A DNA stretch of 64,000 bases from Eledone cirrhosa (taxonomy: Eukaryota): positions 68,572,001 through 68,636,000 of the forward strand of contig OZ024740.1 of the NCBI GenBank assembly GCA_964016885.1, written 5' to 3'. The notes beneath the pieces were generated by a model. That model saw only the letters and a program-made list of their open reading frames with translations. It was not told the origin of the DNA and searched no databases. The translations under genes and the position numbers were made by a program. Below are positions 7,476 to 60,740 of this stretch, one piece after another (position 1 is the first letter of the stretch; each line of letters starts with the position of its first letter).

Positions 7476-7860
7476 GTAGAGGTTATATTTAATTTGTTGG
7501 GATACAACAAGCAAAATAGTTTTATAACTGATATAAAGCACTCACCAAATTATTGGAGTAAATATACAATATATTAACAAATAGAAACTATATTTATAAA
7601 ACCATATTTATTTCATTATACATATTTCAAGGGACACTAAGTCAAACTATGGTGCGCTTTCATCAAATAAAATATATCCAGGAGATTCCAAGCAGAATGG
7701 TTGCATTTTTTCAGAGTATGTCAATATTTATTTATAAAACTAACCTATATTATATTTTATCTGATGAAAGCACACCATAGTTTGCCTTGGTGGCCGTTGA
7801 AATATGTATAATGAAATAAATATGGTTTTATAAATATAATTTCTATTTGTTAATATAGTG
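7476..7860. mobile_element. Back-to-back inverted pair of HHR repeat family H2
   Basis: ~7560-7676 is the reverse complement of ~7750-7860; the same family occurs at 51471-51808; flanked by TA repeats. Confidence 0.85.
7753..7818 (+). ncRNA. Type I hammerhead ribozyme (family H2)
   Basis: tattttat-CTGATGA-aagcacacca..tggtggccgtt-GAAA-tatgta-TA-atgaaata; stem I tattttat/atgaaata. The inverted copy at ~7609-7673 has C3>T. Confidence 0.75.
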
Positions 7861-7902
7861 TATATATATATATATATATATATATATATATATATATATA
7901 TA

Positions 7903-8615
7903 CATCATCGGAGTGAGTTTCTTGGTCAGTGCCCAAGTCTCAGACCCGTATAGCAGCACAAACTCCACTACAGCAATGAAGAGGCGGATTTTCAGGTCTT
8001 TACGAAGGTCAGACTTCCACACCGATCACAAGCTGTGGCACGCCGCCCGCTTTGCTCTTCCTCTCAACCACATCATCTTCCGTATTCCCAATCTCTGCTC
8101 CCAAATACAGGAAGTCCTCAACCAATTCTAGCGGCTTCCTGCCTACATTAGTGATCCCCTCTGTCTTCTCAACATTCTCTACCAGATATTTTGTTTTTGT
8201 CTCATTCATTCTGAGCCACACACTCATCGACACAGTCTCAACCTCCTGCATTAAATCCTCGCCTCCTTCACTGTATTTGTCACCAAAACTATGTCGTCGG
8301 CAAATTCAGCATCTGATACCTTTTTCGCCTTAACTCTCCTGCTCTGAGCCGGTTCTACAGTAAAGCCAGGGTCATGGTGTTTCTCCAGTGCAAGGCGCAT
8401 AAAATAGTCCACTACGATGAGTTGACATTGCACTCAGTGCTCCTGGGGGAGCCCCTACATGGACACACTGGAAGAGGAAGACCAAGGTTAACGTATGTTG
8501 ATGCCCTAAGGACAGACACTGGTGTGTTGGAGACGCAGGACATGGCAGCAATAATGAGGGACAGTGACCCTGGAGAGATCTCGTCCATGGATCTCTGGAA
8601 TTTTACCTGCCCTAG
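7903..8615. mobile_element. RTE-X-like LINE fragment with internal inversion, between two (TA)n tracts
   Basis: Minus part (7903-~8418) has IVVDYFMR..EFADDIVL, VEDFLYLG and VLLYGSETW. Plus part (~8410-8615) has HSVLLGEPLHGHTGRGRPRLTYVDAL (C-terminal motif). Confidence 0.85.
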
Positions 8616-56560: not shown

Positions 56561-57339
56561 TGGGTTACACTCAAACATATGTACCCGTCTCTGTGTATAT
56601 TCTTTTCGGTAAAGACGATGTCATTTCAATATGCAACAAAATGTTCAATGGAAAGGATTTGTATATAGATGAAAGACTTTAAGGAAAATAGCAAATAATA
56701 GAATCTCGTCAGAGGGATTGCACAAAATTCTCAGCGACAAGAATTAAATATTAATGTCTTGATGCACCAAGCGGTAACTATGCACCGTCTCATTTTTTTT
56801 CCAGAACTTTCTTCTTCTCACACATTAACTTTCTATTTTATCTTTTATTTCTAATTCCATCATGTGGGGAAGGACTTTTTCCAAAACGCTAGGACTCTTT
56901 TGCTACTATGCCAAGCGTAAAACCAGTAATATATTTGTTCATTCTACTGTGTTGTTTGCATTGTTATTTCTGATTACTATTTACATATATACATACATGT
57001 ATATACAAGTTTTCAAAGAGAGGAAGAAGAAGAAGGAGAAGAAGAAGATACATATATATGTATAATATATTAATTGTTAGGTAAACATGTCCATAGGCTG
57101 AGTTTGAATATAATTATTAAGGCCGATTATTACAACTGTTACACACCAGGGAGTATTGTACTTTAGCCCTGAGAACACATTTGTTCAACCTGTGCCGATG
57201 AAAATCAACCAGTTCATTGTAATTCTACTTGACACAAGTTGCACTCGTTAGTGCTCATGTCTAACGAAACATACGTACTTGGTATGGCACCGTTGTGTTA
57301 ACCGACCTTAATAATTATATATATATATATATATAGGAT

Positions 57340-58690
57340 AACAAATTATCGTTATAGGTAATCCAGTTAGAGGTTGTGAGTACTCTGTATTGTGGATAGT
57401 TTTAACTTACGGCGTTGTTTGACTCAACAAAATGATTCCTTATTTAGATGGCGAGTTCCCGGAAATTCCTCTGCAGGTTAATCTTGGAGTAATAATAGTG
57501 AAAGAGTGAAGAATAACATGGTCAACAGTACAGACATGGTTTTATTTACAGTATTAACAATTGTTTCATTGATTAGGATGTCTAAAGATTGATAATCACT
57601 TGAAGTTGTGTCACTCAATCATAAATACAATGTATGCCTAATCAAATCATCGGAATAACTGACAAAATTACACTCGATATCTGTCTTTATATTACGGAGA
57701 TTTCTAATAATAACATAATGATAAAGAAATAAAAATAAAAATAAAAAAAAAATAATAAATAATAAAGAAGTTAGAATGAAGATGATAAAAAATAAGGTAA
57801 CAAAACTATACGTGAAAAAATATATGAACATCATATGATTGTTGAAAATAGTGGTGGTGGTAGTTAAAGTTATAGTGGTGTGTAAGTATAAAGATGTGAT
57901 GAGGGTAGGAATATTATTAATATGAAAATAAATATTAAATATATACGTATATGTATTGGTTAAATCACAGATGGTTAGAGTAGGAAGAAAGATAAATTAA
58001 TGAATTAGAAGTTATGTTAGAGGTTAAGAGATATAGGATAGGAGATTTATGATGTTGATTTAGTGATTAGCTCGTTTGTTGTCAGTTAATAATAGTGAGT
58101 TTGTATGTAGTTATTATAATAGACCCTGGATGGATCAGCTTGTACTATGGCGTTATTGGATCGAATCATGTTGGTTTGAAATTTGCGAATTTAGTAGCTG
58201 CTTTGGGCCTACAGAGAATTGATCGTTCTATTTTGCTGTTAAGCAGCATTTTGTCATACTTTAAAATATGGAACAGCTCCATATTGCAAAGTCCCAGTGA
58301 GACATTCTATTTCTGTAGTTGTTTGCTCCCGATAATTTCGACCAGCTAATCCTGTATTCTTGGTTTGTATCCTTAAGTTGCCAGATTATATTGGCCAGCG
58401 TGTTTGTGTTCACTAGTCTACGGTTCATCAAAGAATATATGTGGACATACCATTTTTTTTTTACTCCCCAGCCGTAGAAGCTATGTAGTTCCATGCTAAG
58501 TTGCCCGAATTTATAGTACACAGATATACTATATTTGATTCCAGGCATCTATTTTGTAGTGGGCACTTATCCGGTAAGTGGCAGTTACATAGGGAGGCCT
58601 ACCTGTGTGCAGGTTCTCCGTTGCGGTTTTGTATGTTGTAATGTATGGGTTGAGATACTAATAATATGTTATGTATGGGTTGAGATACTA
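57340..58690 (-). mobile_element. Inverted 3' portion of a PLE (decayed GIY-YIG, 3' UTR and HHR)
   Basis: NTLANIIWQLKDTNQEYRISW; ~58341-58660 is the inverted copy of ~60420-60735. Confidence 0.87.
57549..57661 (-). ncRNA. Variant-core hammerhead motif (CCGATGA) with long stem II at the PLE 3' end
   Basis: cagttatt-CCGATGA-tttgattagg...cctaatcaat-GAAA-caattg-TT-aatactg; 9-bp stem II base and palindromic CAATTG. Confidence 0.68.
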
Positions 58691-60740
58691 ATAATAACAA
58701 TGAGGAATTTACTAGTGAAAAATACGGGTTCAAATCCTACAAAAATCCACCGAATAACCCTCAACTCGATGCCTTTGAACTCGACCTCGTGAACATGATA
58801 AACAGAACCAAATTCAAAAATCGGACAGGGTACAACTGCAAAACGACAACAATGCACTACTAAAATATCTACGTAACACCAACGGTATTATAGTAAAAGC
58901 GGACAAAACATCAAACGTATAAACCATGAACCTTAATACAAACAATAACTTTAAACGCTGTGAATTACACAAACATTACAGGAAAACTATGGCATCTACA
59001 CTCACTAGCATTAATAAGGATGGACTTAATATAGTAAACAAAACTGAAAATATCTGACAGAACCGAGCCTCTGACCTCTTGTAAACCCACATTTAATCTA
59101 AAATATCATAAAAATAACTTCGAAACTGACCCTACTATTAGATTAATATGCCCATCGAAATCGGATATAGGTACAATTAGCAAGTATATACTAGATAGAA
59201 TATTAGCACAAATTAAAGACAAACTAATAATTAATCTATGGCGTAACACTAACGAAGCAATAGATTGGTTTCGCAAAATTGACAATAAGGAAACATCCGA
59301 CTTTATACAGTTTCACATCAATGACTACTACTCCTCCATTTCCCCAGTCACTCTAAATAAGGCACTAACATTTGCACAGAAAAACTCGGACCTATCCTCT
59401 GATGAAATTAGAATAATACTATCTGCTAGGAGAACTATCATTAGGTTCGATAATAGTTACTGGGAATTAATAAAAATCAGAATTGCTTCGATATCACTAT
59501 GGGATCTAAGGGCTCAGCTCAAGTAACAGAGATAGTTGGAATATATATAGCGCATAACTTACCTAGGGAATTTAATAACCCCCAAGGAGGAATTTATAGA
59601 GACGATACACTCCTTTTAGCTAAAAACTTAAATAATCAAAACTTGGAAAGATTACGTAAAAACATTACAATCTTCTTCAATAAACTAGGCCTATGCATCA
59701 CTTTCGAACTTAATTCTAAAAAAGCTAACTTCTTACATGTAACACTCAATCTTAACGCAGCAAAATAGAGCCCTTCCATAAAAATAACGAAAATCTAGCA
59801 TATATTAGTTATAACTCAAACCAGCCTAGCTCCATAATTAAGTCCATAGAACATTGTGTATCCCTCAGAATTTCGCGCTTATCTTCTAACCTAGATATGT
59901 TTAATTAACACGCAAACTACTATAACATAGCTTTACTTAAGGCAGGCCACAAGTAGAGGCTGAAATACATACCAGATACAGACAACAACACTACCCACAC
60001 CTATAGAAATAGCAAATATAGGACTAACCATGGAAATAGACAACGACCACCAGAAATAACTGAACGAAATACGAATATAAGGATCCCTAGGAACTATAGA
60101 AAATCCAGAGATAGGAAATACTTATGGTTCAATCCAATATTCAACTCCTTTATAAAAACAAAATTACCTTCTACATTCTTTAAATTAATTGACAATCACT
60201 TTCCTAAACTTCACAAATACCATAAGATCTTTAACAGAAAAACTATCAAACTGTCTTACTCTACTGCAGCCAACATAGAATCACACATACATAAAATTAA
60301 CTATAGAAGAATCTCTAATGAAAATAACCTACAAACACCAACTACAAAACACAAACTCATAACAACATCACAACCACATAAAAGTCAGAACGCATCACAA
60401 CAAAACATCCAGAAACACAAATCTCAACCAGTACATAACAACATACAAAACCGCAACGGAGAACCTGCACACGGGAAGGCGTCCAAATGTAACTGCCACT
60501 TACCGGATAAGTGCTCACTATAAAATAGATGCTTGGAATCAAATATAGTGTATCTGTGTACTATAAATTCTGGCAACTCAGCATGGCACTACATAGGTTC
60601 TACAGGTGGGGAGTTTAAAAAAATATGGTACTTCCACAGACTTTCTATGAATAACCATACACTAGTGAACACAACAACGCTGACCAATGCAATATGGCAG
60701 CTTAAGGATACAAACCAAGAATACTGTACGAGCTGAAGAT
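58690..60740 (+). pseudogene. Penelope-like RT plus GIY-YIG pseudogene
   Basis: YGFKS..AFELDL, IVKADKTSN, RLICPSKSDIGTISK, LWRNT..IDWF, FIQFHINDYYSSI, FDITMGS..AQVTEIVG, GIYRDD, NFLHVTLNL, WFNP, HFP..HKIFNRKTIKLSYS, NIVY..YIGST; several stops and frameshifts. Confidence 0.93.

Follow-up and report, generated by a model that had tools for sequence, protein, structure and literature searches.

The question raised by a 64,000-nucleotide stretch of the Eledone cirrhosa genome (assembly GCA_964016885.1, contig OZ024740.1, positions 68,572,001 to 68,636,000, forward strand; hereafter the window) is whether pairs of inverted repeats that share one polarity are products of single insertion events and, if so, how they are made. 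The window, at C1:68.57 Mb of a genome of 3.0 Gb in 1796 contigs, is AT-rich (GC ~33%), and 8.6% of it is simple repeat by our own mask, chiefly (TA)n. It contains eight inverted structures with the left arm on the minus strand, the right arm on the plus strand, the 5′ ends in the centre and the 3′ ends outward, mostly against (TA)n; one of them is a coding Penelope-like element (PLE) assigned to the Hydra clade, and the others belong to non-coding families. We consider it probable that the pairs are insertion units of the PLE and of these families and that each arose in a single event, with both nicked strands of a (TA)n or other AT-rich target serving as primers for reverse transcription (RT). 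The narrower proposal, that one RNA is copied twice per pair in one concerted event, appears about evenly balanced, if anything on the doubtful side.

Inverted pairs were detected by self-BLAST after microsatellite masking, which gave 11 pairs in the window with partners at most 3 kb apart, including every place named in an earlier note on this DNA. That note had described eight structures, the coding PLE among them, as back-to-back, mostly ending in (TA)n and linked to PLEs. All eight were confirmed by the masked self-BLAST together with a sense assignment that did not rely on ribozymes, and the (TA)n ends and the link to PLEs were borne out. In the families concerned, one end is constant and lies against (TA)n or sometimes (CA)n, and the other is variable, some copies continuing into a longer parent. 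A constant 3′ end with a variable other end is the pattern of 5′-truncated retrocopies; the sense of each arm was therefore set from these two features among genome copies, and that of the coding element by tblastn. The inverted repeats lie at 7575-7852 (family A, arms 82% identical), 10419-10532 (family F, 91%), 13000-13671 (family B, 85.5%), 13826-13950 / 14399-14521 (family C, 91%), 35455-35915 / 36682-37139 (family C, 97.4%), 50887-51187 (family B, 83%), 51477-51706 (family A, 95.6%) and 58354-58656 / 60421-60724 (coding PLE, 87.5%). The arms of the non-coding families and their neighbours, where a tailed arm has the full 3′ end and a tail-less arm ends at an internal TA-like site, are as follows.

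7472-7676, minus: family A tailed arm, unit positions 222 to 17, 3′ end leftward at a TG/TA run
7675-7868, plus: family A tail-less arm, unit positions -58 to 134, with (TA)n at 7853-7907
9833-10419, minus: family B, one full and one partial unit in tandem, period ~430 bp, without an inverted B partner
10419-10680, plus: family F, a 114-bp 5′ hairpin (10419-10532), then the body to (TA)n
12987-13388, minus: family B left arm, outer end within a TA-rich linker
13386-13685, plus: family B right arm, 5′-truncated ~100 nt further than the left arm, outer end within a TA-rich linker
13692-14338, minus: family C tailed arm of a diverged subfamily, q1393 to ~q794, with an internal (TA)n expansion at 13961-14030
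14401-14521, plus: family C tail-less arm, q1104-1225, internal-site end and then (TA)n
35232-35449 (repeat 35244-35445), no strand: family G palindrome, back-to-back, found by self-BLAST
35450-35915, minus: family C tail-less arm, q1225 to q767
35916-37308, plus: family C tailed arm, q1 through the 3′ end
50795-51000, minus: family B left arm, tail-less, outer end within a TA-rich linker
51000-51378, plus: family B right arm, reaching the true 3′ end, then (TA)n 51379-51476
51477-51591, minus: family A tail-less arm, by alignment to the family reference
51592-51812, plus: family A tailed arm, by alignment to the family reference

Cross-matches assigned the pairs at 7.5 and 51.5 kb to family A, those at 13.0 and 50.8 kb to family B (whose third place, at 9.8 kb, is tandem only) and those at 13.7 and 35.4 kb to family C, leaving the family F hairpin at 10.4 kb and the coding PLE at 57.3-60.7 kb. 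Judged by these matches, the eight structures are not eight independent trials but two pairs each of A, B and C, an inherited hairpin and one coding element. The earlier list was thus right in that all eight are real inverted structures, while it repeated families, counted the hairpin at 10419-10532 and lacked the palindrome at 35244-35445. All four family F copies seen have the centre of the hairpin at nearly one and the same place in the unit (q57-66), which indicates that this palindrome was inherited and not formed on the spot; its left arm adjoins family B, not (TA)n. The structure at 13.7 kb consists of one long minus-strand family C copy with the internal (TA)n expansion and a short plus-strand arm. 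Two apparent spacers were rejected: the 767 bp within the 35.4-kb pair are family C element body, and the 54 nt within the 7.5-kb pair are the 5′ part of the right family A arm.

To see the polarity beyond the window, the same genome was searched with one arm per family. Each search gave 987-2944 first-look candidates, of which 40 were scored and 30 loci kept with 1.5 kb of flank, so that the sampled loci are top-scoring copies, not a census; they include the window's own loci, and the two family A samples have five places in common. Junctions were counted automatically as adjacent opposite-sense matches with a gap of at most 600 bp.

Family A, sample 1: 18 head-to-head junctions, in 17 of 30 loci; 1 tail-to-tail
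Family A, sample 2: 17 head-to-head junctions, in 14 of 30 loci; 6 tail-to-tail
Family B: 15 head-to-head junctions, in 15 of 29 loci; 1 tail-to-tail
Family C: 12 head-to-head junctions, in 12 of 30 loci; 3 tail-to-tail

Over the 119 sampled loci, 62 head-to-head junctions stood against 11 tail-to-tail junctions, and at gaps of at most 20 bp the counts were 49 (16+9+12+12) and 0. The head-to-head bias is far beyond chance, and the suspicion that orientations might be balanced across the genome did not hold for these loci. All 11 tail-to-tail junctions have 34-505 bp between the copies and look like separate insertions into one microsatellite. The earlier statement that no pair is face-to-face therefore stands for abutting copies and fails for spaced neighbours.

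That each pair entered the genome as a unit is indicated by its flanks and its inner ends. The 10-bp sequence GTAAACTTTT flanks the whole family C pair at 35.4 kb (35440-35449 and 37309-37318), which landed not in pure (TA)n but in the right end of the family G palindrome at 35232-35449. Duplications of 15-28 bp likewise flank whole pairs in imperfect microsatellites at loci L102, L066, L067 and L068, and target-site duplications overall measure 10-28 bp. The outer ends are fixed, and the inner junctions are different in every copy and in most cases asymmetric: by our own reading 16 of 28 family A pairs are out of register by more than 10 nt at their inner ends (for example 89 vs -55, 189 vs -50 and 57 vs -52), and family C gives similar cases such as q1213 vs q809. 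The families also include solo copies and 5′ truncation series. The variable inner junctions, the whole-pair duplications and the composition of the pairs described below together point to one event per pair. The arms of one pair, moreover, have private variants in common (12 in 2246 nt, where 3.4 were expected from arms compared across loci, 98 in 63927 nt; P = 2.5e-4), which is modest evidence for a shared template. The inversions are not fold-back artefacts of library preparation, a possibility named in the earlier note, as arm divergence is 3-18% and target-site duplications enclose whole pairs. Sequences from four runs aligned to 35300-36400 were short contigs belonging to the repeat family, and of those listed none spans the 35915/35916 junction.

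The composition of the pairs follows from two kinds of outer end. Tail-less arms of family A end at '...TTGTATAT', ~90 nt from the true 3′ end, and those of family C at '...TTTCATATA', ~170 nt from it, in both cases with a TA-rich run directly after. Ten regular family C tail-less arms end at q1224-1226, and in all nine with a readable outer flank the end lies at this site with the TA-rich run. Solo tail-less copies are common (10 of the 17 solos in an unbiased family A sample), which marks the internal site as an independent point of initiation. One tailed and one tail-less arm make up 28 of 28 distinct family A pairs; under independent choice at the frequencies of the solos, such a result has P = 1.2e-4 and 1.7e-4 in the two samples. 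The same composition holds for 18 of 19 distinct family C pairs, the exception being a small hairpin (L087/L175). The 5′ ends of terminal-start arms often fall at or close to the internal start: they lie at q1213, 1231, 1267, 1156 and 1142 in family C, whose internal site is q1225, and at 189, 115 and 89 in family A, whose internal site is 131. Such copies are plain inversions of the L1 twin-priming type; L157, L160 and L162 are non-overlapping inversions. Tailed partner arms are more truncated than their tail-less partners (Mann-Whitney P = 0.019). At the family C internal start, a short slip duplication (TTTCATA or TTCAT) lies between arm end and flank in L068, L070 and the window copy (35450-35460); it looks like primer realignment at initiation.

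The enzyme for such events may be that of the coding element, which is represented in the window by two copies in opposite orientation; a second, Hydra-like element is also present.

57337-58656, minus: Hydra-clade PLE, inverted 5′-truncated copy, open reading frame (ORF) end (aa 466-608 of protein P0001) and 3′ untranslated region (UTR), true 3′ end at (TA)n 57316-57336
58657-60724, plus: Hydra-clade PLE, copy with the ORF (aa 3-546 of P0001) interrupted by frameshifts and stops, without its own last ~1 kb
60725-60796, plus: 72-nt 3′ end of family H, then (TA)n 60796-60861
16555-18148, minus: second Hydra-like PLE, 3′ part, endonuclease region 17720-18148 (aa 450-598 of P0001), with (TA)n at 16509-16554

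P0001 is a 610-aa protein matched by a 162-aa ORF of the window. By tblastn it is colinear with the plus strand at 58860-60724 (aa 3-546), and its C-terminal part (aa 466-608) is inverted at 58589-58172. The Hydra clade is defined by a CxCX5C linker, and almost all its families insert in (TA)n (PMC8557442); a cephalopod member, Hydra-1_Obim, is 2507 bp long and prefers (TA)n (supplement of PMC8557442). Further marks of the clade are an endonuclease that lacks the CCHH motif and the motifs DKT and RWK. The linker is present as CNCHLPDKC in the ORF at 59957-60523 and as CNCRKPDQC in P0001, and comparison by eye found long motifs common to P0001 and the printed Hydra-1_Obim protein. From the linker, the (TA)n insertion and these motifs, we assign the element at 57337-60724 to the Hydra clade. 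An AlphaFold model of P0001 (mean predicted local distance difference test score 75.8) matches TERT and other reverse transcriptases at E = 3e-8, while the GIY-YIG part was seen as motifs by eye only. Pfam, in a local copy without PF28514 and PF26215, gave no meaningful match for the window ORFs, P0001 or three of its relatives, and a PDB sequence-profile search with the protein gave one irrelevant match. Public metagenome and genome data contain at least 3794 relatives of the Hydra-like RT/endonuclease protein, 335-1068 aa long and in many cases found on contigs of 2-3 kb; PF28514 and PF26215 are the Pfam labels precomputed for these relatives.

Among 30 PLE copies sampled in the genome, 17 have a direct 3′-end fragment upstream, that is, a pseudo-long terminal repeat (pLTR), and nine have a head-to-head inverted arm; in L123 and L144 the tail-less arm has a TA- or TG-rich run at its end. 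What is unusual in the plus copy of the window is that it stops at 60724 inside the ORF and is fused to the 3′ end of family H, which occurs elsewhere as head-to-head palindromes. The 72 nt after 60724 had been considered as filler or as the PLE 3′ end, and both were rejected. A second mixed unit is found at 9833-10680, where the minus-strand family B array meets the plus-strand family F copy head-to-head at 10419. The B/F (10419) and PLE/H (60724) units would fit template switching between different RNAs in one insertion. The microsatellites outside the B/F block mirror each other, (CT)n(TA)n at 9665-9790 and (TA)n(GA)n at 10673-10813, so that either the target was palindromic or each arm carried a compound (TA)n(GA)n tail.

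In the mechanism that we favour, one nicked strand (bottom) would prime at the 3′ terminus of the RNA and yield the tailed arm, and the other (top), a (TA)n end, would pair with the fixed internal UA-rich site 90-170 nt upstream in the same RNA and yield the tail-less arm. Both cDNAs would extend toward the 5′ end of the RNA and stop independently, and template switching or end joining would then connect their ends, some of the joins falling in short palindromes; the palindromic TTTATAAA forms the junction both in the window's 51.5-kb family A pair and in L020. If the terminal-start cDNA stops at the internal start, a plain L1-like inversion would result, and if it displaces the other cDNA, a long inverted duplication. 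For family B the RNA would be multimeric. A single RNA with two starts would explain both the one-of-each composition in A and C and the stops of terminal-start arms at the internal start. The core of this proposal, that both 3′-OH ends of the break prime RT and the cDNAs are then joined, was put forward in the earlier note, and the junctions, the whole-pair duplications, the two types of start and published in vitro PLE data support it.

Several observations weigh against this account. Family B breaks the one-of-each rule: by our own reading the tail is on one arm in ~9 of its pairs, on both in 2 and on neither in 2-3, the window pair at 12987-13685 being of the last kind. Arm-to-arm divergence within pairs (23.6 mismatches/kb) is close to that between random copies (31.6). 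Symmetric junctions exist, at -3 in L001 and L020, -27 in L023 and -139/-137 in L111, and the family F hairpin, L087 and L099 fit a snap-back of the cDNA better. The samples are the best 30 loci of 1000-3000 candidates per family. The in vitro use of start sites by a PLE protein predicts neither microhomology nor the one-of-each rule (PMC11167929). The sequence of the priming events, the displacement of a strand and the final joining are what we infer from the products. It is presumed from the common insertion style that the non-coding families borrow the PLE enzyme, and the 3′ ends accord with this only faintly: a comparison of the PLE and families A, B, C, F and G gave low-complexity matches and one weak likeness, between family A and the 3′ UTR of the second PLE (62% over 81 nt).

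The closest rival keeps both cut ends as primers and lets each copy its own RNA through a dimeric enzyme, so that two ordinary insertions are joined head-to-head. The PLE protein has been predicted to dimerise, and in vitro each of the two strands makes use of both start sites (PMC11167929); long overlapping family A arms that both reach -56 (L016, L021 and L024) are easily explained in this way, as are family B pairs with the tail on both arms or on neither. Two RNAs would, however, give same-start pairs alongside mixed ones, whereas 28 of 28 pairs in A and 18 of 19 in C are mixed (P ~1e-4 per sample), and the stops of terminal-start arms near the internal start would be left unexplained. We regard this alternative as unlikely. 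A snap-back, in which a single cDNA folds back at its 3′ end, copies itself and is closed, as a palindrome, at a TA-like site onto the opposite end of the target, accounts well for the symmetric, non-terminal junctions just listed, for the 16-nt inverted stub at the 5′ end of L099, for the L087/L175 hairpin with its odd outer end and for the constant 5′ hairpin of family F. A fold-back copy cannot exceed the length of its template, though, and 16 of 28 family A pairs, like pairs of family C, are asymmetric by more than 10 nt; moreover, the solo tail-less copies show the internal site to be a start and not only a closing point. As a general explanation, snap-back is therefore quite improbable.

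Least probable of all, and by a wide distance from the reading with both strands as primers, are independent opposite insertions into one microsatellite, DNA fold-back elements or miniature inverted-repeat transposable elements (MITEs), and assembly fold-back artefacts. (TA)n tracts are hit repeatedly, as at 51379-51476 (families B and A) and 13685-13697 (families B and C), and the 11 tail-to-tail junctions are what separate insertions would leave. Such insertions would nevertheless give tail-to-tail pairs equally often and a microsatellite between the copies, in contrast to the 49 abutting head-to-head junctions and none of the other kind, and the duplications flank whole pairs. A MITE needs constant terminal inverted repeats, an invariant interior and duplications of constant length, but the junctions vary, solo copies and truncation series exist, and the duplications measure 10-28 bp; only the family F hairpin has a constant structure. 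An artefact would have identical arms, and arm identity here is 82-97%. In annotation, labels such as MITE, microRNA hairpin (on the strength of weak Rfam matches) or assembly error should be avoided for these palindromes. Separately, the (TA)n tract 51379-51476 is common to the adjoining family B and family A pairs, and 13685-13697 to the adjoining B and C pairs.

The features of the window agree in large part with what is known of PLEs. Like PLEs of the Hydra clade with a C-terminal endonuclease (PMC8557442), the coding element is short and has a probable single RT-plus-endonuclease ORF, CxCX5C and (TA)n insertion. It differs in that frameshifts and stops interrupt the window copy, whose own 3′ kb is missing, in that the length rebuilt from its two arms is ~3.06 kb against 'generally <3 kb', and in that no canonical hammerhead was found in the window copy. 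General PLE hallmarks are pLTRs formed from partial tandems, an inverted 5′-truncated copy at the 5′ end and a one-sided 'tail' of 30-40 bp (PMC8557442). Here, too, we find 5′ truncation, partial tandems (the family B arrays and 17 of 30 PLE loci), inverted 5′ copies and a stretch present in one arm; the stretch, however, is longer (~90 nt in A, ~170 nt in C, ~160-190 nt in the PLE), and the tail-less end falls on a TA-like run matching the (TA)n of the target. The Poseidon PLE protein of Anolis cleaves and extends both strands in vitro and has two internal RT start sites, the tail being the stretch between them (PMC11167929). The use of both target strands as primers, the two start sites and the AT-rich targets are as proposed here. 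Poseidon belongs to a different clade and host, its start sites are non-homologous to the cut DNA and both strands use both of them, whereas families A and C combine one terminal and one internal start. Inverted products were not reported in that study (PMC11167929).

The pairs also resemble L1 inversions in having an inverted 5′ segment and a direct 3′ segment within one target-site duplication, the form seen in L157, L160 and L162. In L1 twin priming, which Ostertag and Kazazian reportedly described in 2001, a second primer from the other target strand is said to anneal inside the RNA and to leave an inverted 5′ segment in one duplication. Most pairs here duplicate tens to hundreds of nucleotides in both arms, which L1 inversions are not known to do. 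Primer pairing here would involve (TA)n and not a poly(A)/T-rich site, and the enzyme would be a GIY-YIG/TERT-like PLE protein. Of the papers retrieved on PLEs and twin priming, none, as judged from titles and opening lines of abstracts, deals with PLE inversions.

Of all classes of eukaryotic retrotransposons, the PLEs are the one least understood. Inverted copies, pLTRs, one-sided tails and (TA)n targeting are textbook features of theirs (PMC8557442), and extension of both strands is published as well (PMC11167929). That the recurrent insertion mechanism suggested in the earlier note would be new is not supported, the inverted 5′-truncated copy and the (TA)n preference being already on record (PMC8557442). 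The window adds no new kind of element; the modest addition made here is the one-of-each rule. The intricate tandem and inverted arrangements of PLEs and their bias toward microsatellites have been named as open mechanistic questions (PMC8557442). If the single-RNA reading is true, the long-unexplained inverted repeats and one-sided tails would follow from a simple rule that is testable in vitro. The thousands of young copies of small PLE-style families in this genome, with their whole-pair duplications, two fixed starts, one-of-each composition and L1-like inversions, are a clean natural record of insertion products and can guide in vitro work on both-strand priming.

Motifs resembling the hammerhead ribozyme (HHR) accompany several of these elements. 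The core CTGANGA...GAAA, where present, lies on the strand of the retrocopy sense. It occurs in three of the four family A arms, in family B and in the 3′ UTR of the second PLE.

7761-7802, 51524-51565 and 51618-51659: HHR-like cores of family A
10024-10048 and 13206-13230, minus: HHR-like cores of family B
16605-16651: HHR-like core of the second PLE, with the same layout as the family A core

Helices can be drawn by hand for the cores of the second PLE and families A and B. No such core was present at 57337-58172, the 3′ region of the coding PLE. Rfam gave no match at the gathering score across the window; at E<=10 there was no hammerhead among the best 150 of 295 matches for the window, nor on 51470-51810. 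The many weak Rfam microRNA matches are palindromes and TA runs and were rejected as genes. Single-strand folding of three HHR-like regions gave unremarkable z-scores of -0.6, -1.4 and +0.4. On the core pattern and the hand-drawn helices, we call the motifs hammerhead-like only. Further cores with a well-paired helix II lie outside the listed pairs, at 4342-4367 and 15673-15710, both on the minus strand.

Family B resembles in sequence the non-LTR retrozymes of animals. These are described as short tandem repeats of 150-450 bp with low GC and a type-I hammerhead, expressed as self-cleaved linear and circular RNA, and are proposed to be PLE-dependent non-autonomous elements (PMC7229834; preprint 10.64898/2026.07.22.740005). 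Family B is non-coding and AT-rich, has a tandem period of ~430 bp and carries a type-I hammerhead-like core (CTGACGA...GAAA, then palindromic ACTAGT); its motifs are not scored by the Rfam models. Neither PMC7229834 nor the preprint 10.64898/2026.07.22.740005, with 0 and 1 uses of 'inverted' in their texts, mentions inverted arrangements. An unpaired relative of family B lies on the plus strand at 48900-49290 (63% over 281 nt), with an HHR-like core at 49140-49164, between two copies of the B-box repeat described below.

A few further repeats were noted. The (TA)n at 13961-14030 inside the family C copy has grown from a ACATACAGATACATATG-like stretch, and the elements may thus seed fresh target microsatellites. 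Another abundant repeat, ending in GGACGTAAAATGATGATGATG, lies beside (TA)n in the flanks of L004, L011, L012, L069 and L100; in L100 a family A copy stands between two inverted copies of it. The window also holds about ten copies of a ~200-bp repeat with a tRNA-like B box (GAGTTCAAATCC), probably a tRNA-derived short interspersed element (SINE).

11775-11985, 21946-22107, 22944-23130, 25142-25355, 30258-30426, 30966-31110, 45556-45934, 48736-48889 and 49271-49430: copies of the ~200-bp B-box repeat

Two opposite-sense sets of these SINE-like copies, 21946/22975 and 45800/48739, were considered as paired insertions and rejected, as they lie 0.9-2.8 kb apart and look like chance. Opposite-sense neighbours of this repeat are 0.9-14 kb apart and show no special pairing.

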